This document shows, piece by piece, positions 3,094-42,087 of a stretch of DNA of 46,591 nt. Origin of the DNA: Kiritimatiellia bacterium (GTDB lineage Bacteria; Verrucomicrobiota; Kiritimatiellia; RFP12; UBA1067); NCBI GenBank assembly GCA_017459225.1, contig JAFUDL010000537.1:1-46591 (forward strand). The letters run 5' to 3'. How positions within the stretch are numbered: position 1 is the stretch's first letter; each line of letters starts with the position of its first letter. The notes under the pieces were generated by a model, which saw nothing but the letters and a program-made list of their open reading frames with translations, did no database searches and was not told where the DNA came from. The position numbers and the translations under genes are program-made.

Positions 3094-3149
3094 TTAACGC
3101 AGAGGCGCAGAGAAAGAAAAGTCTCTGCCCCTCTGCGTCTCTGCGTTAA
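3094..3149. repeat. REP-like hairpin: inverted 19-mers TTAACGCAGAGNCGCAGAG
   Basis: The left arm is ttaacgcagaggcgcagag (3094-3112) and the right arm is ctctgcgtctctgcgttaa (3131-3149). They are complementary at 18 of 19 positions with an 18-nt loop. A third copy of the 19-mer lies at 18349-18367. It sits between convergent genes but has no U-tract on either strand. Confidence 0.75.
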
Positions 3150-3160
3150 AAGAAAAGGCA

Positions 3161-3216
3161 CCACCCAACTACCAAACCACCCAACTACCTAACTACCCAA
3201 CTACCGAACCACTCTT
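3161..3216. repeat. Tandem 8-mer array (CTACCNAA / CCACCCAA), 7 units
   Basis: It reads ccacccaa ctaccaaa ccacccaa ctacctaa ctacccaa ctaccgaa ccactctt. It shares an exact 18-nt string (cctaactacccaactacc, 3188-3205) with 37903-37920. The array supplies the stop codon and last codons of the GT2 gene on the minus strand. Confidence 0.85.
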
Positions 3217-8231: not shown

Positions 8232-8330
8232 GATTGTTCACAAATCTCAATTGTTCACAAATGCCATAATTGCCACCAATACAAATTGCTATTTGTGAAC
8301 AATTGTGTCAATTGTCATTTGTGAACAATA
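8232..8330. repeat. Array of four TTGTTCACA(AAT) motifs, two direct then two inverted (DnaA-box-like)
   Basis: TTGTTCACA occurs at 8234-8242 and 8251-8259, and TGTGAACAA at 8294-8302 and 8320-8328. The 22-nt string cacaaatctcaattgttcacaa (8239-8260) recurs exactly at 16979-17000. The array lies in an AT-rich convergent gap. Confidence 0.85.
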
Positions 8331-9244
8331 TTCGATAGGGTGTTTGGCCCTTGCTTCTTCTGAGCCTCTTGCTTCCATTGTCCTTCTAATTGCTTTTCTA
8401 TCTTCCGTGTTCTCTCCGTATATATGCGTTCCCTCGCCTTGCGCTTTTCTCCTTCGATGCTATATCGGATTTCCAACTCCTTCATTTTCCTGAGCCTGTC
8501 GCGCTCTTCACGAGAATATCTTATCTGGCTTGCGGAACATCCGGCATTGGCTAACTTTACGTACTGCGCGTCGGTGACGTACCTCGACTCGCAGGCTGCG
8601 TCCGCTATAGGATTGCGCTCCCCTTCTTTAAGAGTCTTCTTGTGTTCGACGGCTTGGTTGACGATCCACTCAAAATCCGCATTAGACACGGCGAGTTGTT
8701 TGGCGACGTGGCAAAGATCCGGCAGCATGGACGGATCCTTTCTAATGGCGGCGAGGATGCGCGCGGCCTGCTTCGACGTAAGGTCTTCACGTTTCTTGTC
8801 TTTAAGCGCCCTTCCCAGCGACTCGCGCTGAATTGTATTTGTCGGCGACAGATAACGCTCGTCATTCAGGGCTTCGTCAAGGTGGTTAAAGGCGAGGTCA
8901 TAGGACTTCGCCCTCTCTCTTTGCATTCGCCTTTCGGGAGCACGCTCTATGTACTTGTAACAGTCGTACGGCATCCACAAGATGTCGTATGCAGGTGCCA
9001 CAACGCACATCTCGGTTTCATTGATTACAAACCCTACTGGCCAGGTCACAAGGCTGACGCATAGGTAACTGCCCAATGTAGGGAGGAATGGCCAGTATCT
9101 ATAGTTGTTATCGAGGTTCCACAGGGCCCTCGTCGAATTGAAGAACTCACCTCTCCTTGTCTCAAACATATAGCATCCGCCCGACATCGAACAGCAAACG
9201 ATGACAAGCAATGTCTTTGCGAATGTCTTTAGTTTGTCCATCAT
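8315..9244 (-). CDS. Hypothetical lipoprotein (helical, Lys/Glu/Arg-rich C-terminus)
   Basis: The start is moved from TTG 9256 to ATG 9244 (MMDKLKTFAKTLLVIVCCSMSGGC, lipobox-like). It begins 8 nt downstream of the GH89-like stop. I recognise no family motif. The codon usage is visibly AT-richer than the flanks. Confidence 0.5.
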   Translation of the reverse strand: MMDKLKTFAKTLLVIVCCSMSGGCYMFETRRGEFFNSTRALWNLDNNYRYWPFLPTLGSYLCVSLVTWPVGFVINETEMCVVAPAYDILWMPYDCYKYIERAPERRMQRERAKSYDLAFNHLDEALNDERYLSPTNTIQRESLGRALKDKKREDLTSKQAARILAAIRKDPSMLPDLCHVAKQLAVSNADFEWIVNQAVEHKKTLKEGERNPIADAACESRYVTDAQYVKLANAGCSASQIRYSREERDRLRKMKELEIRYSIEGEKRKARERIYTERTRKIEKQLEGQWKQEAQKKQGPNTLSNIVHK

Positions 9245-13884: not shown

Positions 13885-13898
13885 TGGGAAAGTGGAAA

Positions 13899-13986
13899 TG
13901 TTGCCAGTGTTGCCAATATCCAGTTCCAATGACCAATTGTGCATTGGCAACATTGGAACTGGCAACACTTTCACATTGGCAACATT
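13899..13986. repeat. TGTTGCCA / TGGCAACA inverted array (2 direct plus 3 inverted copies)
   Basis: TGTTGCCA occurs at 13899 and 13908, and TGGCAACA at 13945, 13960 and 13977. The reverse complement of 13942-13986 matches 18250-18293 at 41 of 44 positions in my hand alignment. Confidence 0.85.
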
Positions 13987-14024: not shown

Positions 14025-16643
14025 CTATATATGGCCACGTTTGATGATGATTGCAAGAACAGCAATGTCTGCAGGATTGACGCCTGGGATGCGTGAAGCC
14101 TGCGCAAGCGTCTCGGGCTTGTAGCGTTTCAGCTTCTCCCGGCTTTCATAACGCACGGCAGTGCATTTGTCGAGATCAAGCCAAGCGGGGAAGGAAATCT
14201 CCTCGTCACGTTTCGCCCGTGCGGCGGCAGCCTCCTCGCGCGTTATGTAGCCCGCATACCGGGCGCGTATCGACAACTGCTCAAGAACTTCTGGCGGGAT
14301 TTTGCATGCTGCGGAATCCTTACCCACCTTCTCACTCACATGTTCATTGCAATTAGCCGGGTCCGTTGCATTGCTCGCGCTATTACTTTCACCTATTTCA
14401 CAAAGGCGTTCTCGTCCATGTACTCCCGTCGCGACATCTACCTCTAGGTCATGCCCTTCATGCCCTGATGGTGGCCTTGCGGTCAACTGCTTGAGAAGCT
14501 TTGGCGACGACTCGATTTCATCGATCATCTGCTGAAAGCGGTGCGTTTCGGCGCGGATGTCGGAAGGGAGCACGCCAATGCGGTCGGCAGCGTTCGATAG
14601 GCGGTAGCGCGCATTGTCCTGGCGCAGTATCAGGCGACGCTCTGCTCGGCTTGTGAACATGCGGTATGGTTCGTCCGTACCTTTGGTGACGAGATCGTCA
14701 ATCAAGACGCCGATGTAGGCATCCTGCCGACTTAGCACGAGCGGAGCCTCGCCCTTCACGGCAAATGCGGCGTTGATTCCGGCCATGATGCCCTGAGCGG
14801 CGGCCTCTTCGTAGCCAGTGGTGCCGTTTACCTGTCCGGCGAAGTAGAGTCCGCTAATCCGCTTCGACTCTAGCGTATGCTTCAATTCGCGCGCGTCAAT
14901 GCCATCGTATTCGATTGCGTAGGCGTAGGCGAGAAACTCAGCATGCTCTAGACCGGGAACGGAATGGACAAGACGTTCCTGGACATCTCGTGGCAGGCTG
15001 TTCGAGAGACCGTTGGGATATATGATCGTTCCGGCCCTGTCTTCGGGTTCTAGCATTACATGGTGGCCAGGCGCGTCAGGGAAGCGGACAATCTTGTCCT
15101 CAATCGATGGACAGTATCTCACGCCCGTCCCGCTTATCGCCCCTCCGTAAAGCGCACTTCGGTCCAGATTCGAGCGAATGATTTCGTGTGTTTCCGCTGT
15201 TGTGCGTGTTGCCCAACAGGACATCTTCGGCTCGTTCAACGGCCATGGAGCCCTTTCTTGTGCCCACACATCATCGTCCGAAGAATGTTCATTAGTCTGT
15301 TTCCACGTGGAAACATTGTTCTTCAAGGCGGCATTTTGAACGTCCGTGATGCCGTGTTCTACGGCTGTAGTGGCGTCGTTCTTGGTCGGCTGCTCATCAT
15401 TACAATCGCCACACGCACCACGCTGGCCCCAAAAATCCGTTCCGCCGCCCGTCCGCATATCCACGGGACAACCACACCCGCCAGCTGCGCCCTTACCTTC
15501 ATCCTGTTTCCACGTGGAAACAGTCCCGCCCGAAGACCTACCCGCGCCACAGACATCACAACAATCTTCGCAACCCTCTGGCCGGGGCACATTCTGGGCG
15601 TGCAATCCGTCCGCACGTTTCCACGTGGAAACGTCGGCCTCAGGAGCAGCTGAAGAATCTGGTAATGGGTAATCGTGCGTTATATTTTCGTTATGCGTCA
15701 TAATTTCCGCGTTCAGACGATCTTGTTTCCACGTGGAAACGCACTTTTCGGGTTGTTGGACGCCGCGGTCGGTCTGTTTCCACGTGGAAACGCCGCCCTT
15801 ATCGTGTCCGATTCGCCCTGGAGTGACCGCCGCGCACAATGCGGCGGCATCACGGTATGGGAATCTTAGGCCTTCTACATGGGCATCATCTTCGCGTTTC
15901 CACGTGGAAACAGACTTGAGCAGCGCCCGTGTGCGTAGCGAAAAGTAGGGAGGATGGGCTTCAGCTGGGTGTTCGACAGTCTTGGAGAAGTCGATGGATG
16001 ACGCTTTGAGGCGCGGTGGAGTGCCTGTCTTTAGGCGGATCAGCGTGAATCCAAGGCGTTCAAGCGATGCGCTAAGCTGATCAACGGCGGGGCGTCCATC
16101 GCCGCCAGAAGGTTTCGCGTCGCGTCCGATGAAGATGCGTCCGCGAAGGGATGTGCCTGTCGTGAGAATGACGGCGCGAGCGGGGATGAAGCCATGTGCA
16201 GATGTTGTCACACCGATTGTCTGAACATGCCTTTCGGCGTCAAGAGGAGTCGTCTGAATCTCTACAACTGCATCTTCGAGCACCTCGAGATTGGTCTGTG
16301 AGGCAATTACGCGCTGCATTCTGAGGGTGTATTCTGCCTTGTCGCATTGAGCGCGTGTGGCCTGCACAGCGGGTCCGCGGCTAGTGTTTAGCGTCTTTTC
16401 CTGAAGGGCGGTGAGGTCGGCGTTGAAGCCCATTTCGCCGCCAAGAGAGTCCAGCTCAAACACCAGGTGGCTTTTGGCAAGGCCGCCGATCGAGGGATTG
16501 CATGGCATGCGGGCGATTGCCGACTTCAGGCTAGTGACGAGAAGGGTGGGCACGCCCATTCGCGCAGCTATGAGAGCTGCCTCTGCACCGGCATGTCCAC
16601 CTCCGACTACAATTATCTCTGGCTTAAAGTTCATATCGGTCAT
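14025..16643 (-). CDS. mnmG: tRNA uridine-5-carboxymethylaminomethyl modification enzyme MnmG (GidA) with a large in-frame insertion
   Basis: It carries [85 protein letters not shown] and [11 protein letters not shown]. It is 872 aa against roughly 630 aa for typical MnmG. The promoter geometry suggests an alternative start at ATG 16634 (M4). Confidence 0.95.
15299..15911. repeat. Six perfect copies of the 16-bp palindrome GTTTCCACGTGGAAAC (parS-like) inside mnmG
   Basis: Copies lie at 15299-15314, 15506-15521, 15617-15632, 15725-15740, 15776-15791 and 15896-15911. None has a mismatch and the spacers are unique. Each copy is read as V-S-T-W-K in the mnmG frame. Confidence 0.95.
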
Positions 16644-16652
16644 AGTATATCA
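16644..16652 (-). promoter_or_regulatory. Extended -10 element TGATATACT abutting the first ATG of mnmG
   Basis: The minus strand reads TGATATACT-ATGACCGATATG. The predicted +1 (about 16637) lies after the first ATG and 3 nt before the second ATG (16634). Confidence 0.35.
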
Positions 16653-16692
16653 CAACGAGTGCGGTTGGGGAAGAAGGGAGAGAGGGGGGGAG

Positions 16693-16756
16693 GTTTAAAA
16701 GTTTATAAGTTTGAAGGCTTCGAAGTATATGAGTTTCGGGGTTTGGGTGGTGGAGT
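16693..16756. repeat. Tandem 8-mer array GTTTNNNN, 8 units
   Basis: It reads gtttaaaa gtttataa gtttgaag gcttcgaa gtatatga gtttcggg gtttgggt ggtggagt. Confidence 0.8.
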
Positions 16757-16854
16757 TGATTGCAAATTGCTCTGCTTTGACGTATGTTTATTGCTTTCGC
16801 TGGTTGGAGTTTCGGAGTGTTGGAGGTTTTAAAACTAAACTCCACAGTTGAATG

Positions 16855-17276
16855 TCTCACACAGAGGCGCAGAGAGGCAGAGGGCGAAGAGAAAGATCCA
16901 AAATCAGGAGGAAAAGTTAAAGCTATGGCAGGAAGGATCTCAAGAATCTCTTTCACCTTGCCTTAACTTCGTATTGCCCACAAATCTCAATTGTTCACAA
17001 TTGCCAAATACATATTTTTGAAGCAATTGGAAGACCACGAGTCCATGATATGATGTGGCGAGGCCGCCTCGGCCTTGCTGCAAGGGCGATGGCGCTCTTG
17101 CCACATCGGGTTTTGCAACTCAACTAACCTCTTCTGCCATTTGTGAACGATAACGATGTTATCAACATTTACATTCCCGTGCGCAGTGCGGGCGGCGGGC
17201 TAATGGTGAAAACAAACGCACCCGCTCAAAGCGGGATGACCAATCATCTCTGCGCTCTCCGCGCCTCTGTGTGAGA
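16855..17276. repeat. 422-bp segment bounded by perfect 16-bp inverted repeats TCTCACACAGAGGCGC (MITE-like)
   Basis: 16855-16870 tctcacacagaggcgc is the exact reverse complement of 17261-17276 gcgcctctgtgtgaga. The interior holds TTGTTCACA-type motifs, a GC-rich hairpin (17052-17108), the GATAAC-gat-GTTATC palindrome (17149-17163) and a small hairpin (17221-17235). I did not identify target-site duplications. Confidence 0.6.
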
Positions 17277-17307
17277 TATGAGGTAATGCAAAACCTCCAA
17301 AAACATC

Positions 17308-17380
17308 TCACGCCAAGTTCGCAAAGTACGCGAAGTTCTGTTTCATGGATGACTTTGCGAACTTAGCGGACTTTGCGTGA
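17308..17380. repeat. Inverted repeat built from three 9-mers (ACTTNGCGN) per arm
   Basis: The right arm actttgcga acttagcgg actttgcgtga (17352-17380) pairs with the left arm 17308-17336 at 24 of 29 positions. The loop is 15 nt. Confidence 0.8.
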
Positions 17381-17542
17381 AACTAAAAAGCAGGTTTTGC
17401 AACTGGCTCAGAGGGTAAGTGGGGGATGGGAACGGGGACAGGAAGTGCATCGCAAAAATCAAATGCAGACATCATGGGCAATAAAGGAATTCGGAAAATT
17501 CCTTCAGAGGTGTCCTCGTAGATGTGCAAGGCCGAGGCGGCC

Positions 17543-17812
17543 TTGCCACATCGTGCATCGTGTGAGAAGGTTCACGCTGTGGGAAGGGGGGGGGATGGAC
17601 CTATGTTCAGTACAAGGCCGGGAACGGCATTGCTACATCATCGCACACATGAGAGGTAGTGGCCGTAACACGATGTGGCAAGGGCGCCCCGCCCTCGCCC
17701 TTGTGGTAAGGCTAAGGTGGCGTTGCTACATCATCCGTGCATGCGGGAGAGAAGGTAGCTGTAACACGCGATGTTGGCAAAACGAGGCTGCCGTGAGGAG
17801 GCGCACCAATGC
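17543..17812 (+). repeat. Three degenerate tandem units of about 87-93 nt, each starting TTGC(C/T)ACATC
   Basis: Unit starts are at 17543, 17630 and 17723, with a related copy at 17099. Units 2 and 3 share ttgctacatcatc, ggtag, gtaacacg and gatgt(t)ggcaa blocks. GC-rich hairpins include gatgtgcaaggcc..ggccttgccacatc (17521-17552). Confidence 0.65.
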
Positions 17813-18170
17813 GACAACTTATACAAGAGGATTTATCAACAGCAACTATAGAGTTAATAACATATACGTTATGCGTCACGGAAATTGAAGCAAAATTGCG
17901 TTTCCCCCTTTATTTACTGGGGATTGCAAAACATGGAGTCAAAATCAAGCCAAAAATATTAGATTTTTATTAAAAGTTGTCAACGGGTTATCTACAGATA
18001 TGAAACATTAAAATCTAGCCTAGTATATTAGATTTTTCATGCCGTTTTCATTATCGGCGAATGATTTCTGGGGGAGTTATGATAAGATGAAAATATCTTC
18101 AAGGATTTCTGTAGATTCTTTGGCGGCAGCGCCTACTCATCAGTGGACAAAGCCAACCAACTGTCCGTTA

Positions 18171-18209
18171 CCGCTCCAGGTCCTCCCCATACCCTGGAGC
18201 GGGTTTTTT
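18171..18209 (+). terminator. Rho-independent terminator-like hairpin with U-tract, not attached to any CDS
   Basis: It consists of CCGCTCCAGG (18171-18180), a 12-nt loop, CCTGGAGCGG (18193-18202), then G and TTTTTT (18204-18209). The stem is a perfect 10 bp. No T-run exists on the opposite strand. Confidence 0.5.
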
Positions 18210-18249
18210 ATTGTCACAGATAACAATTCGGAAAATCACGGACTTGGAG

Positions 18250-18322
18250 AATGTTGCCAATGTGGAAATGTTGCCAGTCCCAATGTTGCCAATTTCCAAT
18301 GTTGCCATTTGCAACATTTGCC
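18250..18322 (+). repeat. Four direct AATGTTGCCA motifs (periods 17, 14, 16 nt)
   Basis: It reads aatgttgccaatgtgga aatgttgccagtccc aatgttgccaatttcc aatgttgccatttgc. The first 44 nt match the inverted copy at 13942-13986 at 41 of 44 positions. Confidence 0.85.
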
Positions 18323-18338
18323 CCTGTTGCAGCCGAAA

Positions 18339-18367
18339 GCCTCTGCCTCTCTGCGACTCTGCGTTAA
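18339..18367 (-). repeat. REP-like element copy (TTAACGCAGAGTCGCAGAGAGGCAGAGGC on the minus strand)
   Basis: 18349-18367 is the same 19-mer family as 3094-3112 and 3131-3149. 18340-18355 is the exact 16-nt reverse complement of 16868-16883 (cgcagagaggcagagg). The two copies therefore bracket the non-coding island in inverted orientation. Confidence 0.8.
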
Positions 18368-18408
18368 AATCCAAACGAGGAGTTTAGGGTAAACGTTATT
18401 ATTTCTAC

Positions 18409-18443
18409 GCACTAGACACTATACACTATATTCCCTAATCCCT
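18409..18443 (-). repeat. Tandem heptamer array (AGGGATT AGGGAAT ATAGTGT ATAGTGT CTAGTGC on the minus strand)
   Basis: The period-7 array overlaps the last seven codons (..SGIREYSV) and the TAG stop of the NUDIX gene. It shares TAGGGAATA with the heptamer array at 25041-25113. Confidence 0.7.
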
Positions 18444-18862
18444 GAGTCTGTCTCTTTCGTGAAGAAATTCTTCATGACGGGGGGAAGGATGTTGGCTGTA
18501 TCTAGGTTGTCAAGGGGACACCATTCGAAGTCAATCCAGTCCTCGGCGGCTTCTGCCGCTGTTTCTGGCGGAACCTCCATACGATACACGAGGTTGATTT
18601 CGGCGTGGGGCTTCCCGTGCTGAATGAAGGAGTTTTCCACGACGCCGAGAAGGGGGCCGACGGTGGCGTCCACATTCATCTCCTCCTTCATCTCGCGCGC
18701 GAGGGCCTGGCGGCCCGTCTCGCCGAACTCGATGTGTCCGCCGGGAAGGTAGGTTGTGGCGCCGCCCTTAGCGCGGCAGAGAAGCGCCCTGCCGTTCTGC
18801 ACGCACACGCCGCGGGCGATCGTCTCGATGCCCGCCAATTCGTATTCAGGAAAGTTGCTCAT
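18419..18862 (-). CDS. NUDIX hydrolase
   Basis: GGHIEFGETGRQALAREMKEEMNV is a near-perfect Nudix box (G-x5-E-x7-R-E-U-x-E-E-x-G-U). Confidence 0.85.
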   Translation of the reverse strand: MSNFPEYELAGIETIARGVCVQNGRALLCRAKGGATTYLPGGHIEFGETGRQALAREMKEEMNVDATVGPLLGVVENSFIQHGKPHAEINLVYRMEVPPETAAEAAEDWIDFEWCPLDNLDTANILPPVMKNFFTKETDSGIREYSV

Positions 18863-18868
18863 GGAGGA

Positions 18869-18877
18869 ATTATATCA
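18869..18877 (-). promoter_or_regulatory. Extended -10 element TGATATAAT, 6 nt before ATG 18862 (leaderless-type)
   Basis: The minus strand reads TGATATAAT-tcctcc-ATG, so the predicted +1 is the A of the start codon. Confidence 0.4.
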
Positions 18878-18994
18878 AATCTCCGCGGAGAGTGCGACAC
18901 ATGCAAAAAGAATTTGCAAAGCGCAATTGACAAGCGGCGCACAGGGAATGTAAACTATTGGCACTGAAACACAAGAAACTGCATTGAGGTGTAG

Positions 18995-25035: not shown

Positions 25036-25040
25036 ATGGC

Positions 25041-25113
25041 AGGTAATAGGTAACAGGTGATAGGGAATAGGTGATAGGGAATAGGTTGGTGGTTTGAGGG
25101 GTTTGGTGATTTG
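25041..25113 (+). repeat. Tandem heptamer array (AGGTAAT AGGTAAC AGGTGAT AGGGAAT AGGTGAT AGGGAAT ...), about 10 units
   Basis: The period-7 units start 6 nt after the tRNA and grade into the G/T-rich GGTTGGTGGTTTGAGGGGTTTGGTGATTTGG. Confidence 0.85.
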
Positions 25114-25315: not shown

Positions 25316-25822
25316 ATGGAAAAAAAGAAAGTACAGATTCTTGCACCGCTTGTGGCGGTGGTGTGTTTGCTTGCTTTCGTGGCTTTTGAGGGCTGCGAAA
25401 GGAAGCCAGATGAGTCTGTGCTGCAAGGCAGCGGCGGCAATGCCAGCAACCAGGTGTATGTGTCGCGCACCGAGGACCCCGCCTACAGCAAGGCGCTTAA
25501 GGATCAAGTTGCGCAGCAGAAGCGCACGGCGATGGCCCTTGCGAAGATCAAGCGGCAGATGGACGATCTGAAGGAGCGTGCGCGTGCGAAGCTGGGCAAG
25601 GACGCCACGGAGGAGCAGATCAAGGCCGAACTGGACGGCAACCCCGCGAAGTACGCGGGATGGAAGCTACTTGTCGACGCGTACGCGAAAGCGAACGCGA
25701 AGATGGAGAAAGAGTTGGCTGATGTGCGCGGCATAGTGCGGCGACGCATCGAAAAGGAGGCGGCGGACCAAAAGGCCGTGGCCGAGGGGAAGGCGACGGC
25801 GGTGCCCGTTGCCTCTAAATGA
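25316..25822 (+). CDS. Small coiled-coil lipoprotein, function unknown
   Basis: The start is moved to ATG 25316 (MEKKKVQILAPLVAVVCLLAFVAFEGC, lipobox-like). The rest is Lys/Ala/Glu-rich helical sequence. The stop lies 35 nt before the giant gene start. Confidence 0.6.
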   Translation: MEKKKVQILAPLVAVVCLLAFVAFEGCERKPDESVLQGSGGNASNQVYVSRTEDPAYSKALKDQVAQQKRTAMALAKIKRQMDDLKERARAKLGKDATEEQIKAELDGNPAKYAGWKLLVDAYAKANAKMEKELADVRGIVRRRIEKEAADQKAVAEGKATAVPVASK

Positions 25823-25857
25823 CGGACGGAAGAGATTCAACGGAAGGAAGCGGCAAC

Positions 25858-28800
25858 ATGAAGACAAAGAAAACGCTTGGCATATTGGCGATGGCGCTCA
25901 CCGCGCTCGCGTGCGCCCTGCCGCGCACGGCCGAGGCTGCGGGCGACATACGCTCGATCGAGGTTTACTCCGACGCGGAGACGGTGGACCGCACGTTCCC
26001 CAACCTGAACGAGCCGCTCGTTGCAGGCGAGACGGTGAAGTTCAAGATCCGCACAGTCAACCGCCGCCGCGGCGACGTTGCCCCCGATGCAGCGCCGGAT
26101 CCCGATCAGTGGAGGAATCCGTGGTCGCTCCAGCATGTGGGCCCCAACGATCCGATTGCGGACACCAACAACATGCCGCAGGTGGGTCTGTGGGTCAGCG
26201 GTCAGGTCAGATACGCGAAGATAGAGTCGCTTAGGCAGTCCGACGATGGATTCTTCACGGACTTCATCTGCTCCTACGTTGTGCAGCGCGGCGATCTCGC
26301 AATGCCGCTCAAGCTCGTCCGTCCCGACGGAAAGGGCGAGGCGATGAGCGTCAACGGCCAGGGGTACAGCGAGTCGTACTACATGCTCAACGAGTCGCTT
26401 TGGAACTTCTTCCCCGCGGTCAACAGCGGAGTTGCGTACAAGAACGCAAATCAGCTCCAACTTTTCTTCGGCGAGCAGACTCTTCAGAACGGCGGTTATC
26501 ACCAGAGCGTCGTGACGGCCGATGCAACCTACAACAACATCCGCGACTACGACCTCAGCCTGGCCGGCATCTACATCCAGGCAATTGACTTCGACAGCAC
26601 CACCTCCGAAGACACAACCGCCAGCGGCGCCACCATCTGGCGCAACATCGCCGCCAACTCTACCACCGCGACTCCCGCGATGCCTCGCCTCGCCATACCG
26701 GGCGGCAGCGCAAAGGAGCAGACGCTCTATGTGTGGACGAAGGATCCCACCATCGCGGAAATGGCGAACGGCACCGAAACCGAGTACGCCTTCATGGACG
26801 GTGTGACTCGCAAGGTGAGCAAGATCTCCATCAAGCCCAACGACGAGCTGGTCACATTCCGCGTCAAGGGCCTCCGGGAAGGATTAGACACCGAAATCTT
26901 CATGGCCGCCACGCCCACCAACGTCTACAACGCCGCCGGTGTGATGCTCACCAACTTCACATGGCGCACGATCCACATCACCAAGGCCCTGCCGCCCGGC
27001 ATGACGGTGGAGATCGATCCCGACGAGGTGGCAACCTCCGCCGACTACAAGACTTCCGTCGCCGCCATCAACCTCAACCTCACCCAGGCCTGGACGAACG
27101 ACGAAGACCTCGTGGTGCACCTCATTCCGACGATGAAGGACGATCCCTCTGTCGATCCCTGGAAGTACATCGGCGTGTCGACCATCGGCAGCGGTAAGGA
27201 CGAGTACAGCAAGCGCGAGCTCACCATGACCATCCACAAGGGAGACAGCTCCGCGGCTGAATCGGGCAGCATGCTCTACCTCTACGCGAACAGGGCCGAC
27301 GCGCTCACGCTCAAGGGCATCCAGTTCGCCGTCGACGAAAGCGCGCTTTCAGATCGGGCGCGTGCGTTCTTCACAGGCACCTTCACGCCCGGCACGGTGA
27401 CGATCGACTACGCCGGCGGTGCGCTTCAGGTGGTGTTGCCAGAGGAGAACAAGGAGTTCTTCGGCATACCCGGCAACGTGGAGCATCCGTTCACCGTTGA
27501 AATCACCGATGTCATCGGCGAGCTCAACGACACCGGCAACTATACCGTCTACTGGGACAACAACGGCAGCGGAGCGTACGCAGTCATCTCCGGTCTTACC
27601 GCCAACAACGGCAAGCTCACCGTCCCCCGCCGCTATGTCACCGCCACTCTTCCGGGCAATCCCTACCACTCCAAGTTCTACGTCATGAACTCCGGCGGCG
27701 CGAGGTCGCCCGAGCGTACGATTCTCGTGAACGTCGATGCCCCCAAGACCATCACGGCGACTCTTGACAAGGGCGTGGCCAACTATCAGGAAGGCGAGAC
27801 CGCAAAGGTCACGTTCGACTTCTCCGCAGAGTTCCAGGAGAACAACGGCCAGCCTGGCTACCTGTTCATCTATCCTCTCGACGAGACGACCTCGAATCTG
27901 GTCACCATCGCCTCGCAGAGCGGCACAGGCACGAGCGTGAGCGTGTATCCAGGCTATGCCTCCGCCAACTCACAGGCGTCGATTCTGCTGAAAGACGGCT
28001 ACAATGGCTGCACGCTCAGCTTCGGCGTGGAAGTGCGCGAGTCGAACGACAACTCCCTGGACAACATCATCGGAGCCTGGGTTGGCAAGCAGTTCTTCAT
28101 CAATGTCACCAATGTGCTGCCCCGCGTCTCCTACATCTCGATGAACGACACGCCCGTCAAGAACAGCGGCGGCACGTTCACCGCCGCAGTGCCGATGGGC
28201 GTGCAGAAGACGTTCTCCATCGGCATCGCCGATCCCGGCGTCAACTACTTCGACTTTGAAGACGAGAACAAGGCCTACACCGAACTGCGCTTCTGGGAGA
28301 ACGGCGAAGTGGTGGAGAAGAAGGTGATCAAGGGCGCACCTGCCGGCAAGAGCGTCAGCCACACCTTCAGCAACGCGGGCAATGCCCAGGTCACCGCCAA
28401 GGTGCGCGACAAGGACATGACCGACCAGGAGTTCGACGAGGCACCCGAGTTCGTCGTGAACGTCACCGTGATCGATGCGCCTGCCATCTCGCTCTCGCCG
28501 GCGCTCGGCGACAGCGTTTTCGATGAAAGCGCAACTGGTCCTGTAAACGGCCGAATCAACGTCGAACTGAACGTGCCGCCTACCGGCCTCGACGTGAGCG
28601 AACACATAACGGTGGAACTGTCGGTCACGCGCAACGGCGCCAACGACGGAATGCTCCCCGTTCTGAACCGCTACGAGATCGAGTTCAAGAACGGCCAGAA
28701 GACCGGCTTCTTCTACTTCAGTGAACTTGACGGCACGCCTGAGAGCGAGAACAAGGGCTTCAGGATCAACGCATGGGTCAAGGAGACCACCACCAGCACG

Positions 28801-31800
28801 GCCGACCCCAACAAGACATGGCGCCAGTACTATCAGCCTGTGACTGATTTCGACGTCTTCATCCGCAACATGGAGCCTGAGATCGGTCCTGGCGCTGATC
28901 CCTCCACGAACGCGCAGCCTGCCGCGCTCAACGTGCCGTTCAACATCATATGGAACGTGAAGGATGTTGCGGCCGACCAGGCGAACATGACGGTGACATG
29001 GAGCTACAACGGCTCGTCCCAGACCACCACGCAGCCCGTCACCAGCACATACAGCAAGCAGATTCTCTTCACTAGCGCCGGCCACAAGGAGGTCACGCTC
29101 ACGGTGCAGGACAAGGACGGCGGAACCGACACCCGCACCTGGTACTACAAGGTCGATCCTTCGATGGGCCTTGAGATCACGCCTCGCCGTCCGAACACAG
29201 GCGCACTCTCCGCGTTCTCGCAGAAGTACACAGGAGCCGTGGGCATAGGCGCGGGCCGTGTGTGGTCGACGTCAACCGACTATCCAACCCGCGTGAGCAA
29301 CTTCACTCAGTACTGGGACTTCCAGCCTGCCAACGACCTCAACCCGAAGATCTACGCATACGGCTACAAGGTTGGCGACAGGGACAACGGCAGTCTCGGC
29401 CCGGCAGGCAGCCGCGACTACGCAGTCGACAACGCCGGCACATGGTACAACCAGGCCTCCTACTACGGTTCCTACTACACCTACAATCCGGGCAACGGCA
29501 AGGACAGCTACTTCTACTGCTGGCTGTACTTCGACGTTGAGGAGAACAACTCCACCCACCTCAGCGGCACCGTGCAGCCGGAGGTCGGCACATCCACGGG
29601 CGAGAACCGCGTGCAGATGCCTGAGCAGGATGAAGAGGCTACGTCCTATCCGCGTACGATGGTGGAGGCCATCTTCTCCGTCGAACGCGACCCCGAGGAC
29701 AACGTGGGCGACATCAACCAGGACGGCATCCCCGACGTATATGCCGCCAACACCACGTGGAACGGCGGGCGCCTCTTCCAGTTCGCGGGGTACGAACTCG
29801 AAGAGGGCGGAGACCTCATGAACCTCGCAGGGGTGAACGACGATGGCGACTACCTGCCCGCGACAACCGCCAGCGGCGGCGCGCTTGTGGAGAACGTCCA
29901 GAACTGGCCGCGTCTCGGCGGCGATTTCACGGCCATCCTCGAGATCCGCGGCTTCCACAAGGGCCTCAACTTCCGTGCCGACAATGACGGGCTCAACCGC
30001 AACGTGCGTGGAGCCTGGATCTCCATTCCCTCGTTCTCCGAGGCGGAGTCCAACGCAATCGCCCGCGTGAACAACCTCTGGGTTGATGACACCGACGAGG
30101 AAGGCAACGCGATTCGCCGTCTGCCCAACCCGGAGAACGCCGCCGAGGTGGCCAACTGGACCGCGGGCCTCAACAGGGCTGACAGCTGGATCCCCGAGAA
30201 GCGTACCGACCCGACAATGGAGGACACCGACCAGGACGGCTTCCCGGACGGCTATGAGTACTTCTTCTGGTACAGCGCAATGGTTGGCGTGGATGGCATC
30301 GACAATCGTCTGCGCGGCTCCAAGTTCACCATCGACGACATTGCAACGGGCGAGGAGCTGACCCCCGAGGAGATCGCTGCCGCGTTTGATCCGACTGTTG
30401 CCGCCGACGGGAATCCCGACAGGCGCGACACCGACAACGACGGCCTTACCGATCTTGAGGAGTATGCGCTCGGCACCAACCCGATCAACTGGGACACCGA
30501 CGGCGACGGTCTTTCCGACTTGTGGGAGATCATGCGCGGCATGAACCCCGTCAAGGCCGACAGCGCCAACAACGGCGGCATGAACGCCGACGGCGACTTC
30601 ATGGCCTACTGCGAGACCGATCCCGAATATGCCATCGTCAACATCGAAGGACTTGGCGAGTTCGCCATTCCGAACGACGGCGGCAGTTACATCACGATGG
30701 ATGGCGACACGTGGAAGTTCACAGACGGCGTCACCAACGTGAACGCGATCGCGGTGTTCCGCTATGGCAAGCCTGATGCGATCTGCGTGCCGAGAAACCG
30801 CGGCACGGCCGGGCTGCCGCCCCTCTCCGCGACTTCGCTTCTGCTCGAAGGCAACACGAACATCGTCTCCGTCGCCCTCGGCCAGCCCCTCGCGCTCATC
30901 CACGATCAGGTGTACAACCAGTTCGGGTTCGATCCGCGCACAGGCTGGTTCATTAACGACCACGGCTTCCTTGGCAGGCGCTGGGAGCCCAACTCCGTGG
31001 TGGCGGGTTCGAGGTTCTTGAACGGCGCCGGTGAGCCCGTGAACACCAAGGCCTACACGGCGCGCGACGAGTACCTCCTCCTCAAGTACCGCTACGAGGC
31101 GACGCCCGCGATGGAGGGCTGGGACGAAGACGCCGGCGAGGCGTTCGTCTTCTCCAAGGCGGCCGACAAGGCGCTCTGGAACGACAGGACTCAGCGCCAC
31201 CACGAGCGCGTGTTCCGCCGCGGCACCACCAACCCGAACGTTGCCTACGAGGAGCGCGTATGGGTGACGGAGTCCATGAACGGCCAGAACTACGCGAGCG
31301 AGAACCATGGAGCCGACACTGACGGCGACGGCGTGCCGGATGGATGGGAGCTCTACGTAGCCCACAACCCGAACGACAACCGCGCTGCCGACACTGCTGA
31401 CGGAGACAACGACGGCCTCAACCTCGTGAGAGAGTACGCAGGCACAGACTCCTGCAATGCGTACGCGGCGTGCGAGAGCATCTATTCCCAGCATCCTGGC
31501 ATTGCAAGCGGCTGGTTCAACAAGTTCTTCCCGACTGACCCGAACAATGCCGATACCGACGGTGATGGACTGGACGACGGCGAAGAAGGGGCTGCCTGGA
31601 TTGGCACATGGGTGTACGGCAAGTCCACCTCGCTTCAGGGCCATCGCTTCACCTTCATTTATGGCGACCGTGACGGCATGCCGGCTGAAGAATTTGCCGA
31701 TCCCAACAACCGAGAGCTCTGCATCCGCGGCGGCGGCTTGAACCCGTGCACGGTCGATACCGACGGCGACCTCCTGCCTGACGCGTGGGAGAGGCAGTTC

Positions 31801-34800
31801 GCAGGCATCCTCTTCGACGCCTCCGCCTCGCCTGTCGGCGCCGATCGCGACGATGGTGTGATTACGATGATCCGTCGCGGCGATGGTCTTGGAGCCGAAG
31901 GCGCTACGGCAGCAGGATTCTACATCACGGGCGGCATGGACGGCACGTATGGCGCCGATGCATATACGCTTTCCCCAGGAGGTGCGTTCTTCGATGGTTC
32001 GTCGAGAGACCCGCGTACCGGCACAAGGCGCGATTTCGACTTCGACCACGACGGACTCCAGAACTTCCAGGAGTATCTCGTGCAGTCGCTGCGCCATCTC
32101 CGCTTCGACGACAGCGAGACGCCTCTGATGGGCAGCTGGATGCCAGACGGTCCCCAGGGTTCGCGCAAGTTCGTGCGCTTCCTGCCCATGAACATCATGG
32201 ACGGCGACACCTTCTACAAGATCTGCAAGGACAATGGCTTCGCAGCCACTGGAGCCTGGCAGTTCGAATATCTCGGCTATTTCGTGCAGCCGCCCAGGGA
32301 GTGGGACTGGGTGCGCATCAACAACTACACAGAGTTCATGATGAACTATGACGAGTTGGGATATCGCGTGATGCTCATCCCTGCGGCCCTTGACCCGAAC
32401 GGCCAGCGCATGTCTGCTCTCGGCTACCTCACCACCGATCCGCGCAAGTGGGATACAGACTCTGACGGCATGGACGACTTCTACGAGCTGTTCCACGGCC
32501 TGAACCCGCTGCTCGGCAGCGTGCAGGACGGCACGCTTGACTATGACATCATCGGCCAGCAGTACATGGGCATGATCAACCACTGGTATAATGGCTGGAC
32601 GGCCTGGCCGCAGATGCCCTGGAACGGCGAGGAGCCCAAGTTCGACGCAATCGCCTATCCCTGGATGATGGGTGCGCCCGAGGCTGATGCCGACGGCGAT
32701 GGACTGAGGAACAACTCCGAAGCTCTGCTCGTGAACATGACCTCGCCGATGCCCACGCACACCGACCCCACTCCGTTGTGGTACACCGACTCCACCGCCC
32801 TCAACAATGCGAGCTACACAGTCCAGTACTACCAGCTTGATCCATACGCTGACAGCCCAGACTTCATGATGTATCCGTGGTCTTGGTCCGTTGGAAGCGG
32901 CAAGACGATGGAAGGCTCGACGTCGGGCACCTTCATGTACTCCTTCGAGGAGAACGAGGGCTACGACACGGACAACGACCGCATCGCCGACGCCGACGAG
33001 CGTGCTATGACGGGCAATGCCATCTCTGATCCGCTCAAGTTCTCCGATCCCGACCGCCGTCAGGCTCTCTGGTTCCCGGGTTCCGAGTCCGCCGCTGTTT
33101 CGTACTCCGGCTACTTCCACCGTCCGAACGGCGATCAGTACGACGTGCTGCGCCAGTTCACAGTCGAGGCCTGGATCTGCCCCGAGGACCTTGAGCGCGA
33201 GCAGGTGATTCTCGAGCGCGTGGCCAGATACACGTCCTCCACCTATCAGAACAACGAGGCGCAGGTGCGCGCCAACTTCCGCATCGGCATCAAGGCCGAC
33301 GGCCGCGTGTATGGTCTGTTCGACACTTCGGATGCCGTTCCCTCCGGAATTGGTCCTGGTTCGCCAACGGTTGTTGGCACCGTTCCCGAGGCCGGCAAGT
33401 GGCAGCATGTTGCCCTCACCTACGACGGCAAGGAGCTGAAGCTGCATCAGGATGGTCGCGTCTCTGGCATTACCGCGACCTCGCTAGAGCCCGCGAATGG
33501 TCTCGTGGTGCTGCAGCAGGAAGCTGTGATCGGAATGGAGAACTTCCCCGTTCTTGAGAACGGCTACTTCAACCTGCCTTGCGCGTTCGTGCTTGGCGCG
33601 CAGGCCATGGATGAAAAAGCGATCGGCCTCACGCCCGAAACCGAGTGGGCCAGCTACTCGAACTTCTACCAGGGCTATATCGACGAAGTCCGCGTGTGGG
33701 ACGGCGTGCGCTCGCTCAGCGAGATCAAGGAGTCCTACAAGAAGCGCATGAGCTTCGATGACGTTGCCGCGCAGCGCGAAGAGGTGTACAATGCCTGGTT
33801 GAGAGGTGCCACCCGCAACGACAACGACGGCAAGGAGATGCTGCCCGCCGAACTGCTGCAGCACTATGCGTTCCAGGCTCTCCCCGGCGCCGTGAACGCC
33901 ACGGACGTTCTCTGGGAACCCGCTGGATTCACGAAGTGCGTGTTCGACAACGTGCGCGACATGGACGGCGTGCTGCCCGCCGGCACCTTCGAGGTAGGCT
34001 GGTGGAGCGCTCTGCCCGTGCGCAGCACCGTGTACGAGAACTACCGCTGGGTGCCTTGGATCCAGAATACATGCGGTCACCTGCCGTTCATGGACGGCTC
34101 CTGCGCCGACTCGCGCTACTGGAGCGAGTTCTTCGGCGGCACTGCCTCCGCGCAGGAGGTCTATAACGACCGTAATCAGGCGAACACCGACGCCCAGATT
34201 CTGGCCCTTGGCGAGGTCAAGAAGATCCTATTCTCGAACACCGCGCATCCTTATTCAATGTACAACTACAGTTCCGAGCGGTTCTATCACGAATTCTTCC
34301 TCAACTACATGGCGGAGGCCGATTCGAACTTCCAGACGAACAGCACGCTCTATGCGTTCGAGATCCGCAGCGGCTTCGTTGGCACTTCCGACCTCGTTCC
34401 GTTGGGCGGCGCGTTCGCCAAGCGCACAGAACAGATGTGGGATGGCGACGGCGCGGCTGACGCATGGGAGGTCACGGCCGACGGCGACTCTGCCCTTGCC
34501 GACATCGACGGCAACGGAATGCCCGACTGGTGGCAGGAAATTGCGATCGCAAGGTATGGCGCGCCTGAGGACTTCGACTGGGCTTCTCTTGTGAAGTGGC
34601 CCGATGCCTCCGGCACGGAGATGACGGCGCGCGAGGCGTATCTGCGCGACATCGCAAGCGGCATGCTGCCCGGCGGCGTGACGGAGACGGTGTTCGTTGA
34701 CAAGCGCGACACTGACAAGGACGGAATGCCTGACTGGTGGGAGCGTCTCAACGGCATTGCGGATGAGACCGCCTATGGCGACCATGACAACGATCAGCTC

Positions 34801-37800
34801 TCCAACTACGCCGAGTACCTCATTTCCGAGGGCTTCGTCAAGTACGGCTTCCCGGCCGTCAGCCCGATCAAGCCGAACACGTTCGGACAGGGCGTGCCTG
34901 ACTACTTCCTGCGCGTCGGCTCGCTCTACCTCGGCCAGATGTTTGCCGACGGCGACATGATCAGCGACATCTGGGAAGACCAGTTCGGCGTAGACGTGGC
35001 CTCGCGCGGCCTGTGGGACGCCCATAAGGACGCCGATGACGACGGATGGAGTAACTGGGCAGAGTACCAGGCCGGAACGCGTCCGGATCTCGAGGCCATT
35101 CTTGGCCCTGATGGCTCCACGCTTTCCGAGTACCCGGTGCCCGTGATCGAGGCGAGCGTGGTGTACAACGGAAAGAAGGACTTCTCGAGCGCGGTTGTCG
35201 TGCAGGCTTGGTCGCAGTCCAACAGGGGCGACAAGCAGATGACGGGAATGCCAGACGCTTCCTGGACGATTCCTGCGCCGGGTGCGGCGGTCGAGAAGAC
35301 GCATGTCTTGGGCTCCAACAGAGGCCGAGTGGTCAACTTCAGCCTTGGCCCGGGAGCAGTCGAGCCTGGAAGCGTTGAGATCCGCTTCAAGGACCTCAAC
35401 TCCCAATGGCGTTGGCAGGGCGAGTACCATGCCGAAGAGATGGTGCGCGACTGGAGAAACCGCTTCAACGACAGGAAGCTTGAAGGCACTGACGAATTCG
35501 GCGAGATGCTGGTCGATGGCGTAAAGGTGGGCGACATCAACTACGTCACCGGCAGCGTAACGATCGACTTTGGAGTGGACGATCTTCAGAACCAGTGGCC
35601 GTTCCTCGTGGCGATGGACGATCAGCACGCGGTCTGGGAGGTTCTCGACCTCAAGAACTCCTATGTGATGGTCAGCTGGAGAACCCAGAAGGTCAACGTG
35701 GGCAATTCGGGCAGGTTCTACCTCTCCTGGTCCGACGAGAACGCCGTCAACGGCGGTGGCGATAACAACAATGGCGGTGGCAACGACAACAGTGCGGCCG
35801 GTCTCACGAAGTACGGCCATCTCCGCGAGGGCAAGAACATGTTCATCGCCTTTGCCGACATGGACGGCAACGGCGTGTGGACGCCAGGCGAGCCTCTCGG
35901 CGTCGCGGCCGACGTTGACGTGGGCTGGTCTTCGGCCTCGTTCTCGGTGGAGCTCACGGACGTCGCGCCGCAGATGGCGCGCATGAACATCTCCGGCCTT
36001 ACTGCTGCGGCAGACTTCGGCGCGGCGGATGCGCTTACCGACCGCAGCGCGACTGTAAACGGATACTACTATTCCAACCAGTCTCTGCAGACGGCATTCC
36101 GCATTCTGCAGACCGAAGACGGCGACGACAATGGTCTTGGTGGCGGAACGGATGTAGGGGGTACTCAGGCCGAGGGCAGGCCTGCCGCCAACGCAACGAG
36201 CCGAATCCGCGTGATCCGCACGGCCGTCAACGGCGAACTGGGAGTTGGCGACGTGCTGTACAACGGAGTGGTGCTTGACCGCGAGATCTATCTCGGCGGC
36301 CACCCGATGCTGACCGAAGCGGACCTTGTGGCCGATGGCCTCCTCGACCTCGACTGGGGCACGCTCACCGCTGCCTGGCAGTCCACGCACAACGGTTCTG
36401 CCATCACCACCAGTCTCACTAACGCCACGTACCGTGTGCTCTACGGCAACGGTTCCGCGGAGAAGTGGACGTTTGACTCGTTCGCCGCGGTCACGTTTGT
36501 GAACGCATACGAATACGGACGTACGCAGACGGCCGCAGTGCCGGTGGCGCCCAAGGGCACAACTCAAGGCGCCACGGTTACGTTCAAGTGGCGTCACGAG
36601 GCACTTGACGCGAACGGCTACAAGATCAAGGACTACCCGGCGTTCCGCCTGCAGGTGCTTGACAGCTCCGACACGGTGGTGTACGATTCCGGCAACAGGC
36701 GTGCGCCTGCCCGCAACTCGCAGGGCGTGTACAGCTGGACGGCTCCGCTCTACGACGGAATGGTCACCGCAAAGGGCCATGTGTTCTCCTCAAAGCAGAG
36801 CTACAAGTGGCGCGTCTCGATGCTCGACGCCAAGTTCACCAGTCCGAACTGGGCTACGCAGGAGTTCCGCGTTGAGGCCTCCGGCATGATGAACGATGGT
36901 CGCCGTCTTGGCGCAATCGCCGCGAACGTGAGGTACTTCGGTCCGATCTTGGACAAGGTCTCCAATAAGGCCTCTAACATCCAGAACCTCATCCACGTGC
37001 AGGCGTTCACCTCGCCCGACTTCTCCGGCGTGCCTGTGTCGGAGGGCTGGGTGTCCAACGTGACTGATCTCGCATCGCAGAGCGTCGAGGGCGTCAATGC
37101 CGTAACGCTTGCGGTTCCTGCTGGCACCTACTACCTCTGCGCGTACATCGACACGAACGGCAACTTCAAGCGCGACAGCTGGGAGAGCTGGGGCTACGCC
37201 AACGGCATCGGCGGCAGCGATCCCGATGTGTACAAGCCGGCAAAGGTCGTTATTGAGGAGCCCAGCTCCGCCGTGCCCTGCGTGACGATCTTCATCGAGG
37301 ACTGCGACACCGACCAGGACGGCTTCCCGGATGCGTGGGAGTACGTGACCAACGGTTCGCTTGCCACCCAGGGTTCCGCAGGCGGAAACACTTTCTTCAC
37401 GAAGGTCAATCCGAACCTGCTCGCGACGGTCCAGGCCTACAGCAACCTCGGTCTTGCCCAGCTCGCAACGGGCAGCGACTATGTGGTGCCCAGGCTCATG
37501 AGCGTGCTCTCCGGCGATGACGCCGCCAGCCTCGCGATGGCCTATCTGCTGAGCGGCGGAACGAATCCTGACGATCTCGCGCCAGAGATGGAGGTGAAGG
37601 TCGATTCGTTCAGCACCGAGGGCGGAATGAAGCTCATCATCTCCTGCGAAACGAAGCCAGTGACGGGCGGAAGGCTGCTGGCCGCCGTTCCTGATCCCGA
37701 GTTCGAGATCGTGCTCCTCTCGAAGAAGGCGCTCTCCGACGAGTCCTGGACCGAGACCGTTGCAGGAAAGGTTACGGTGCCCGCGAACGGCAAGGTGGAC

Positions 37801-37881
37801 GTTTCCACAGAGCTTCTCAACCTCACGGTGAAGGCCCGCAAGGAAGCTGGCGACCAGTTCTTCAAGATCAAGATCCGCTAG
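25858..37881 (+). CDS. Giant (4,007 aa) secreted multidomain protein: PKD/Ig-like modules, at least 16 thrombospondin type-3-like calcium motifs, one LamG domain
   Basis: The likely start is ATG 25858 ([27 protein letters not shown]), preceded by GGAAGGAAG. PKD-like blocks occur near 28360-28430 and 29068-29130. DxDxDG/TSP3 motifs run from 29707 to 33015 and from 34498 to 35090, with others near 35850 and 37298. A LamG block lies at about 33050-33750 (ALWFPG...[12 protein letters not shown]...[13 protein letters not shown]). It ends in a tandem TAGTAG stop. Confidence 0.9.
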   Translation: [4007 protein letters not shown]

Positions 37882-42038: not shown

Positions 42039-42087
42039 CCAGTGCCTTCTCAAAGCTTTCAAGTACGCACACTTAGAAGACTGAACC

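Follow-up and report, generated by a model that had tools for sequence, protein, structure and literature searches.

A repeat-rich spacer beside mnmG in Kiritimatiellae with a conserved three-box module as a putative accessory DnaA-box cluster of the origin region

The island beside mnmG and its three-box module

This analysis concerns a non-coding island of 1.78 kb (positions 16644-18418) in a 46,591-nt stretch of DNA, hereafter the window, and the relation of this island to the origin of chromosome replication. The window belongs to a member of the Kiritimatiellae in the Planctomycetes-Verrucomicrobia-Chlamydiae (PVC) group, whose closest species-level genome is the sheep-rectum metagenome-assembled genome (MAG) RGIG6444 (L001), with 90% identical MnmG, and by exact-protein look-ups it was matched, at 2-5 mismatches in each overlap, to the metagenome contig ena:ERZ27256839:k141_150882, which is 85.6 kb long. 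The proteins of 1284-2429 and 1284-2423 were absent from the records in such look-ups. For the wider locus, a composite of 71.8 kb was used, made of L016 (reverse complement), the window and L003, and covering window coordinates -15,778 to 56,051. The island lies between mnmG (PF01134, E=3e-142) and a gene for a NUDIX hydrolase, both on the minus strand (Table 1). A first-pass annotation, made from the sequence alone, had proposed this island as a candidate chromosomal origin (oriC), and its points on position and composition were borne out: the island is the largest non-coding gap of the window, the other gaps between gene calls being about 300 nt or less; it adjoins mnmG directly, opening at 16644; a recount of G+C in the AT-rich core at 17821-18060 gives exactly 78 of 240; and the 13-mer ATATTAGATTTTT is duplicated at 17956 and 18025. 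The island as a whole has 46.8% G+C as compared to 60.5% for the window. Neither of its two longest open reading frames (ORFs; 17373-17888 and 18039-18392) has a Pfam match and both are broken by indels or a stop in L001, and the second is cut by a stop in L011 and L013 as well as in L001; protein coding in the island was rejected. Scanning the window at Rfam gathering scores returned tRNA-Leu alone, scanning the island at E-values up to 10 returned hairpin or terminator noise only, and ARAGORN found no transfer-messenger RNA (tmRNA).

Comparison of the island among L001, L011, L013, L014, L015 and eight metagenome loci revealed a module of about 170 bp with three co-oriented DnaA boxes, designated a, b and c, and two further conserved blocks. 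The module is kept in six lineages, down to 59% MnmG identity (alignments A2 and A3). The three boxes span 164 bp; box b follows box a at 144 nt in six lineages, while a seventh has 143 nt. Of the AT-rich repeat that flanks boxes b and c, the second copy (18010-18037) is limited to the window clade (alignment A2). When the module was examined by RNAalifold, 15 pairs were obtained with 0 compensatory changes; without covariation and without an Rfam match, its reading as an RNA structure was rejected, and the conservation is best read as a constraint on DNA and protein binding. No conserved IHF-like site was found at the module.

The DnaA box of this lineage was taken as TTATC[A/T/G]ACA on account of the 9-mers at the dnaA promoter, where TTATCTACA, an inverted TTATCAACA and a third box-like 9-mer (TTGTAAACA in the window genome) occur in the same arrangement in L014, L015 and L016. 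This putative box differs from TTATCCACA at position 6. Boxes a and c of the island are exact matches to the dnaA-promoter type. Using the strict motif TTATCDACA, three sites were found in the window as against 0.29 expected, all of them in the island, and five in L016 as against 0.21 expected, all of them in two spacers. Across the loci, strict boxes form four clusters only, namely in the island core, at the dnaA promoter, in the dnaA-dnaN spacer, and in the spacer 5' of a helix-turn-helix (HTH) gene that follows RlmL.

The box evidence of the first-pass annotation fared differently. The four 9-mers on which it relied are all present at the positions that it gave, but three of them (TTGCCCACA at 16974, TTGTTCACA at 16991 and TGTGAACGA at 17142) belong to a dispersed repeat, ATTGTTCACAA, and lie within 16830-17400, a region without homologue in L001. 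The longer repeat unit, ATTGTTCACAA(ATCTCA), resembles the high-GC DnaA box (TTGTTCACA), which misled the annotation; besides its copies at 16974-17006 and 17135-17151, two direct and two inverted copies stand between convergent genes at 8233-8330. Nor is the consensus box enriched, with five matches to TTATCCACA at no more than one mismatch in the window as against 3.6 expected. The fourth 9-mer, at 17988, is among the conserved boxes, while those starting at 17833 and 17977 had been overlooked.

A second repeat-packed spacer, of 600 nt, is found between RlmL and the HTH gene (L016 14854-15448, corresponding to about -10.0 to -10.6 kb in the window). In it, (TTCGTGG)n runs occur together with eight GGGGACAGTCCCC palindromes; of its three strict DnaA boxes, one is TTATCTACA and two are inverted TTATCAACA, and DnaA boxes occur at the same position in L014 and L015.

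Unwinding signature of the dnaA-dnaN spacer and orientation of the locus

To the left of the window, and all on the minus strand, follow a phosphotransferase system (PTS) EIIA gene, dnaA (-5.9 to -7.3 kb), dnaN (-7.6 to -8.7 kb), RlmL and the HTH gene. The lack of dnaA and dnaN in the window, earlier counted as a weakness of the origin proposal, is true as such, but both genes are found only 5.9-8.7 kb past its left end on the same contig. The dnaA-dnaN spacer, outside the window, is about 24 kb from the island in the window genome. In L014 and L015, whose MnmG is 59% identical, the order is a gap of 1.1-1.4 kb, mnmG, a transporter-EIIA gene, dnaA and dnaN, and about 6.5 kb separate the gap next to mnmG from the dnaA-dnaN spacer. 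On one contig of the L013 genome (MnmG 70%), the distance from the island to this spacer is about 20 kb.

Among 2070 predicted origins, 85% are reported to have a basal unwinding system (BUS), in which two DnaA boxes stand beside 3'-GAT-5' trios (PMC8287927). The dnaA-dnaN spacer of the window genome agrees with this layout: two DnaA boxes in tandem directly precede a series of triplets whose middle base is always T (A on the complementary strand), and AT-rich DNA comes next. In sequence, GTTGTGAACGTTGTCTACA is followed by AAG ATA ATA ATA TTA TTA TTC; given in full, the spacer reads ...GTTGTGAACG TTGTCTACA AAG ATA ATA ATA TTA TTA TTC ATT CTT TAC... and then dnaN. Scanning for runs of at least six NTN triplets, at least four of them NTA, gave one site only in the 71.8-kb composite, and that site is this spacer; L014, L015, L019, L021 and L022 gave one site each, always in the homologous spacer. 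No such run was found in the island or in the other loci scanned. The box pair and the triplet run are near-invariant across five lineages (alignment A6), and no 30-mer of the composite is richer in A+T than the one in this site. The dnaA-dnaN spacer is predicted to be the unwinding origin of the genome, and replication most probably starts there.

The change of gene orientation, which had been located at the island, needs a small correction. To the left, the minus strand does carry 9 of the 12 genes, and to the right all but the NUDIX gene are on the plus strand, but the switch itself occurs at the junction between the NUDIX and patatin genes (18.9 kb), at the 5' end of NUDIX (18863-18994) and thus outside the island. 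The strand bias persists beyond the window, over the whole composite (-15.8 to +56 kb). The block that runs from NUDIX through the island and mnmG to dnaA, dnaN, RlmL and HTH is uniformly oriented, and the flanking genes point outward in every lineage examined, hence the strand switch at the island end. Since the flanking genes are directed outward in the window and in the L013 genome alike, the origin is placed inside the block.

Relative to its flanks, this block of about 30 kb, from NUDIX to HTH, appears to have opposite orientations in different lineages (the window as compared to L011 and to L013 with L021). In the L013 genome, a giant gene of 4020 aa is located past the HTH gene, but in the window it is located past NUDIX. 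In the window this gene, for a Laminin_G_3/TSP3 protein, occupies 25819-37881 (+), and is followed at 41319-46051 (+) by a cluster of Amuc_1102, PilM and Amuc_1100-like genes and a secretin, which are pilus-associated proteins of the Akkermansia type.

Small RNA, mnmG and repeats of the island

Table 1. Features of the island and of its surroundings; positions are those of the window unless L016 is named
Feature	Position	Strand or orientation	Remarks
AATGTTGCCA array 1	13897-13986	two plus and three minus copies	between the mnmG stop and an EIIA/CBS gene
mnmG, 872 aa	14025-16643	minus	lineage-specific insertion of ~240 aa; GIDA domain split in two stretches
Six perfect 16-bp palindromes, GTTTCCACGTGGAAAC	15299-15911		in-frame in the mnmG insertion, each encoding VSTWK
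G-rich low-complexity stretch	16653-16830		GGTTT/GAGTTTCGG units, 5' of the mnmG promoter; moderately conserved in L001 and L011
Foldback element, like a miniature inverted-repeat transposable element (MITE)	16852-17279		25-nt inverted repeats ATGTCTCACACAGAGGCGCAGAGAG at its ends; TTGTTCACA-family copies and central GATGTGGCAAGG hairpin inside
71-nt near-perfect palindrome, CGCCAAGTTCGCAAAGT ... ACTTTGCGAACTTAGCG	17309-17379		separate from the foldback element
About three tandem units of ~90 nt	17520-17800		around the GATGTGGCAAGG/CCTTGCCACATC hairpin; one unit in L001 and L011
DnaA-box module, ~170 bp	17831-17998	plus	alignments A2 and A3
Box a, TTATCAACA	17833-17841	co-oriented with b and c
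Invariant block AGTTAAnAACATATAyGTTATGCG	17852-17876		within the module
Block CCCCTTTATTTACTGGGG	17905-17922		within the module; conserved form CCCCTTTATTTAyTGGGG
AT-rich core	17941-18037		28-nt direct repeat (17941-17968 and 18010-18037) flanking boxes b and c
Box b, TTGTCAACG	17977-17985	co-oriented with a and c
Box c, TTATCTACA	17988-17996	co-oriented with a and b	11 bp from box b
Candidate small RNA gene	18110-18209	plus	-10-like TGTAGATT at 18110-18117; predicted RNA ~18122-18209, ~90 nt
AATGTTGCCA array 2	18250-18318	four plus and one minus copies	between the small RNA terminator and the NUDIX stop
CAGAG-type repeat, CCTCTGCCTCTCTGCGACTCTGCGT	18340-18364		member of a dispersed family; similar hairpin at 3094-3150
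NUDIX hydrolase gene	18419-18862	minus	right-hand neighbour of the island; synteny in L001, L011, L013 and L029
dnaA-dnaN spacer	L016 12158-12467 (window ~ -7.3 to -7.6 kb)		several DnaA boxes, box pair, triplets, AT-rich DNA

A candidate small RNA (sRNA) gene follows the module on the plus strand. Its product would have a hairpin, GGACA-AAGCCAACCAAC-UGUCC, and an intrinsic terminator with a 10-bp stem (18171-18180 with 18193-18202), the loop UCCUCCCCAUAC and a U-run. Nine distinct variants occur in Kiritimatiellae contigs, in which 15 pairs are 100% paired (135 of 135 pair cells standard), two pairs of the terminator carry compensatory changes, and the G-U intermediates fit the plus strand only; the fold has z = -3.3. 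No Rfam family matched the candidate, either at gathering scores or at E-values up to 10, where only terminator-like noise appeared. The motif TGTAGAWW is invariant about 10 nt 5' of the first hairpin in all nine variants, while a -35 element and its spacing are inconsistent among them. The terminator loop is C-rich (UCCUCCCC, anti-Shine-Dalgarno-like) and the hairpin loop CA-rich. The sequence TGTAGATTC was tried as a fourth, inverted DnaA box and rejected; because it is retained without the module in the sRNA copies of L026 and L028, it is more likely the -10 element of the sRNA.

The mnmG gene itself encodes a protein whose homologues range from 705 to 882 aa. Its start is probably the second ATG, at 16634, and not the annotated first one at 16643. 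In all lineages compared, the conserved ATG is preceded at 7-9 nt by an extended -10 element, TGATATACT (16644-16652, minus), from which it would appear that mnmG is leaderless. In L015, TGGTATAAT is found 6 nt before the ATG of a His_Phos gene (~9000-9030).

The array of palindromes within mnmG, which had been described as parS-like, was confirmed: six perfect copies of GTTTCCACGTGGAAAC are present as against 0.14 expected, at 0.7-1.3 kb from the island. The VSTWK repeats that they encode fall at MnmG residues 245-444, with all spacings multiples of 3. Relatives L001, L011, L013, L014 and L015 each have 4-6 perfect copies within mnmG, L013 with three more that are degenerate, and none was found outside mnmG in the loci scanned. 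Retention of the palindrome in mnmG down to 59% identity, with no copy elsewhere in these loci, suggests selection at the level of DNA, and the array looks like a candidate ParB/Noc-type binding-site array within coding sequence. A canonical parS was rejected, with no match to TGTTNCACGTGAAACA at three or fewer mismatches; the inner 12 bp of GTTTCCACGTGGAAAC correspond to a palindromised TGTTCCAC half-site, while the outer 2 nt on each side differ. Searching the literature for the 16-bp palindrome gave as sole match an unrelated HIV paper. A second match to GTTATGCGTCA, at 15690, was dismissed as a chance match with one mismatch within mnmG.

Much of the remaining island consists of repeats. 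No homologue of the foldback element (DNA fold z = -7.4) is present in L001, where a different insert is bounded by the same terminal repeats, and the element is not found in L011; related copies are seen at 3094-3150, 8233-8330 and 18340-18364. With terminal inverted repeats, dispersed copies, and presence or absence among relatives, the foldback and hairpin repeats resemble repetitive extragenic palindromic (REP) or MITE elements. The GATGTGGCAAGG/CCTTGCCACATC hairpin motif occurs in the island only within the composite, and the 71-nt palindrome gave spurious miRNA-hairpin matches only in Rfam, far under gathering scores. Sequences with at most one mismatch to AATGTTGCCA number 12 as against 2.0 expected, and are concentrated in two arrays that bracket mnmG and the island and are limited to the window clade (MnmG at least 85%). 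Array 1 is at the same place in L007-L011, L002 and L030 and absent from L013, L014 and L015; array 2 is conserved in L001, L011, L024, L025, L027 and L030 and absent from L013 and L014. In the remaining 38 kb of the composite, none was found. A two-copy cluster of AATGTTGCCA is seen near the HTH gene past dnaN (L016 15101-15142).

CA-rich units (on the coding strand) related to those of the G-rich stretch precede or follow other genes, at 3160-3212 and 37906-37940. More generally, CA-rich tandem repeats (ACCCAACT, AACTACCC, AGGTAAT...) are seen in many short spacers, including 25040-25086 and 39177-39207 besides the two just given, and some stand directly 5' of start codons without a Shine-Dalgarno sequence, as at the acetate kinase gene at 37943. 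The reading of TGGCAACATT as a sigma-54 promoter was rejected on inspection, as the spacing does not fit.

Place of the island in the origin region and comparison with known systems

The island belongs to the chromosomal origin region. It is counted so because of its lineage-type DnaA boxes, the parS-like array beside it, the strand switch, and the distance of about 6.5 kb from the dnaA-dnaN spacer in L014 and L015. Thus, of the proposal that the island is oriC, the origin-proximal position, the conserved DnaA boxes, the parS-like neighbour and the strand switch stand, but the unwinding signature lies some 24 kb away and most of the box evidence is that of a dispersed repeat. The interpretation that we consider rather probable is that the island is an origin-proximal composite spacer with an accessory DnaA-box cluster and not the unwinding site, replication starting at dnaA-dnaN. 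As expected of such a cluster, the module groups three consensus boxes closely in non-coding DNA away from the unwinding origin, and their geometry is conserved. In assigning the start, the conserved and unique unwinding signature at the canonical place was weighed above a strand pattern that could arise from insertion of a single block.

In mechanistic terms, DnaA would bind the three boxes, which are of the high-affinity type, as a self-contained complex, and the module would act as an accessory cluster that holds or regulates DnaA near the origin. It may thereby tie the occupancy by DnaA to the mnmG and sRNA transcription units and to the parS-like array in mnmG. Unwinding would be initiated by DnaA in the dnaA-dnaN spacer, at the box pair, the trio-like triplets and the AT-richest 30-mer. 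Besides the module, the island would comprise a separate sRNA gene, the mnmG promoter and lineage-specific repeats, the latter (AATGTTGCCA arrays, foldback and hairpin elements) having expanded the spacer from about 0.76 kb, as in L013, to its present size. Binding of DnaA at boxes a-c, a titration or regulatory role and the site of unwinding are in all cases predicted from sequence.

The main contender is the original proposal in an extended form, namely that the island is a functional oriC, or one of two initiation or sub-origin sites, at which DnaA bound at boxes a-c opens the AT-rich core and forks diverge. Several findings weigh on its side and against the accessory-cluster interpretation. 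In all lineages (the window, L011, L013 with L021, L014 and L015), it is the island end of the block that carries the strand switch. With oriC at dnaA-dnaN, forks would meet 15 of the 18 genes of the intervening 24 kb head-on, and in the L013 genome all genes of a stretch of about 20 kb; by our own count, about 51 of the 55 genes of the composite are co-oriented with an origin at the island as compared to about 39 of 55 with one at dnaA-dnaN. The AT-richest 100-nt stretch of the composite, 17941-18040, is in the island, and the cumulative GC skew of the composite, which is noisy and without a clear V, has its minimum at about 8-16 kb, at neither site and nearer the island. Furthermore, the boxes are deeply conserved, the parS-like array is 2 kb away, and transcription of mnmG leads away from the island, like that of gidA at the oriC of E. 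coli. However, the island contains no run of box pair plus trio, it has three boxes only, and the DNA 3' of box c is not conserved and has about 50% GC in L013. A canonical unwinding signature is at the same time under selection at dnaA-dnaN in the same genomes, which would be hard to explain if it were unused, and the co-oriented block may stem from one insertion event whose orientation was a 50:50 chance. Skew does not decide: at 4-fold sites of the coding strand, the scatter from gene to gene exceeds any replication signal (using a simple gene caller with some strand errors), and neither this measure nor GC skew separates the island from dnaA-dnaN. Initiation at the island is unlikely, even if it is the alternative that survives best. 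The accessory-cluster interpretation does leave the strand switch at the island without explanation.

Also doubtful is a split origin region, in which the module together with the parS-like array would serve as the site of fork divergence, or as a second cooperating site of initiation or centromere coupling, 6.5-24 kb from the dnaA-dnaN element. If the strand switch is indeed the better guide, this lineage would separate the loading of DnaA and the divergence of forks from the canonical unwinding element, which would be unusual.

Still less favoured, and improbable, is that the module is mainly a transcriptional operator, with DnaA acting as a transcription factor for the sRNA, the downstream gene and/or mnmG and having no role in DnaA supply or replication. 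A plus-strand unit follows the module wherever it could be read, which is the sRNA in six lineages and the His_Phos gene with its TGGTATAAT promoter in L015, and in B. subtilis DnaA appears to repress the trmE-noc operon (PMC4447404). The rigid internal spacing of the module contrasts, however, with its distances to both flanking promoters, which vary by hundreds of nucleotides among lineages, from about 350 to 1200 nt to the mnmG promoter and from about 100 to 250 nt to the -10 element of the sRNA. The two elements also occur apart, with L015 having the module without the sRNA, and with L026 and L028 having the sRNA, TGTAGAWW included, without the module; hence the module is not simply the operator of either promoter. 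It is very improbable that the module is bound by another protein or is an RNA or structural element, with its likeness to DnaA boxes coincidental and the island a repeat-accumulating spacer, for although the boxes depart from TTATCCACA at position 6 and the conserved blocks AGTTAAnAACATATAyGTTATGCG and CCCCTTTATTTAyTGGGG are unexplained, the same type of 9-mer recurs in three divergent lineages, both at the dnaA promoter, in the arrangement that is classic for autoregulation, and in the dnaA-dnaN spacer, and is found almost nowhere else, and the module shows neither RNA covariation nor an Rfam match.

Under the accessory-cluster interpretation, a map of the origin region is obtained for this lineage, which combines the box TTATC[A/T/G]ACA, a predicted unwinding site in the dnaA-dnaN spacer and three further clusters of DnaA boxes. 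One of these is the 170-bp module of fixed geometry, present across a wide range of Kiritimatiellae beside a perfectly conserved parS-like array within a gene. The locus also serves as a caution, as the strand switch, AT-richness and loose matches to 9-mers would by themselves point to a place 24 kb away from the unwinding signature. A search of the literature found no mapped Kiritimatiellota origin.

Among known systems, the oriC of E. coli lies between gidA (mnmG) and mioC and combines AT-rich DNA with DnaA boxes, gidA being transcribed away from it. The island has the same neighbour gene, transcribed away, and likewise AT-rich DNA with DnaA boxes. Unlike the island with its three boxes and no array of trios or 13-mers, the E. 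coli site has tandem 13-mers beside more than 10 DnaA sites and is the sole origin, whereas the Kiritimatiellae genome has its canonical unwinding signature elsewhere. The datA and DARS loci of E. coli contain a few essential DnaA boxes within about 100-200 bp, outside oriC, where the spacing matters, and depend on IHF or Fis sites. The module resembles them as a compact cluster of boxes with fixed geometry outside the unwinding origin, but it has no sequence homology to them and no conserved IHF-like site was found in it. In Caulobacter, DnaA binds the centromere (parS region), at sites beside the partition site and away from the origin proper. The module is similarly only 2 kb from a parS-like array, although this palindrome departs from the canonical parS and is embedded in a coding insertion.

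With origins of the BUS type, such as incC in the dnaA-dnaN region of B. subtilis, the dnaA-dnaN spacer described here shares the box pair, triplets with an invariant middle base, AT-rich DNA and dnaN (PMC8287927). It differs in that several triplets read 3'-TAT-5' and not 3'-GAT-5', while the island differs from such origins by having no trios. The best parallel to the module is found in the same organism, where one of eight strong DnaA-binding regions, with 4 sites, is located 5' of trmE, in the same 7-kb region as the two parts of oriC (PMC4447404). This cluster in the jag-trmE spacer is likewise small, made of consensus boxes and placed 5' of a tRNA-modification operon with mnmG/gidA, and it is a few kb from the dnaA-flanking oriC without being the unwinding site (PMC4447404), much as the module is about 6.5 kb from dnaA-dnaN in L014 and L015, whose layout is taken as ancestral. 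In Kiritimatiellae, by contrast, mnmG is co-oriented with dnaA and trmE is not part of the arrangement, the three boxes of the module include a rigid 144-bp gap and are accompanied by other conserved blocks, and in the window clade the module lies 24 kb from dnaA. Allowing for these differences, the B. subtilis trmE cluster of DnaA boxes is the closest described counterpart of the module and of the DnaA binding predicted for it.

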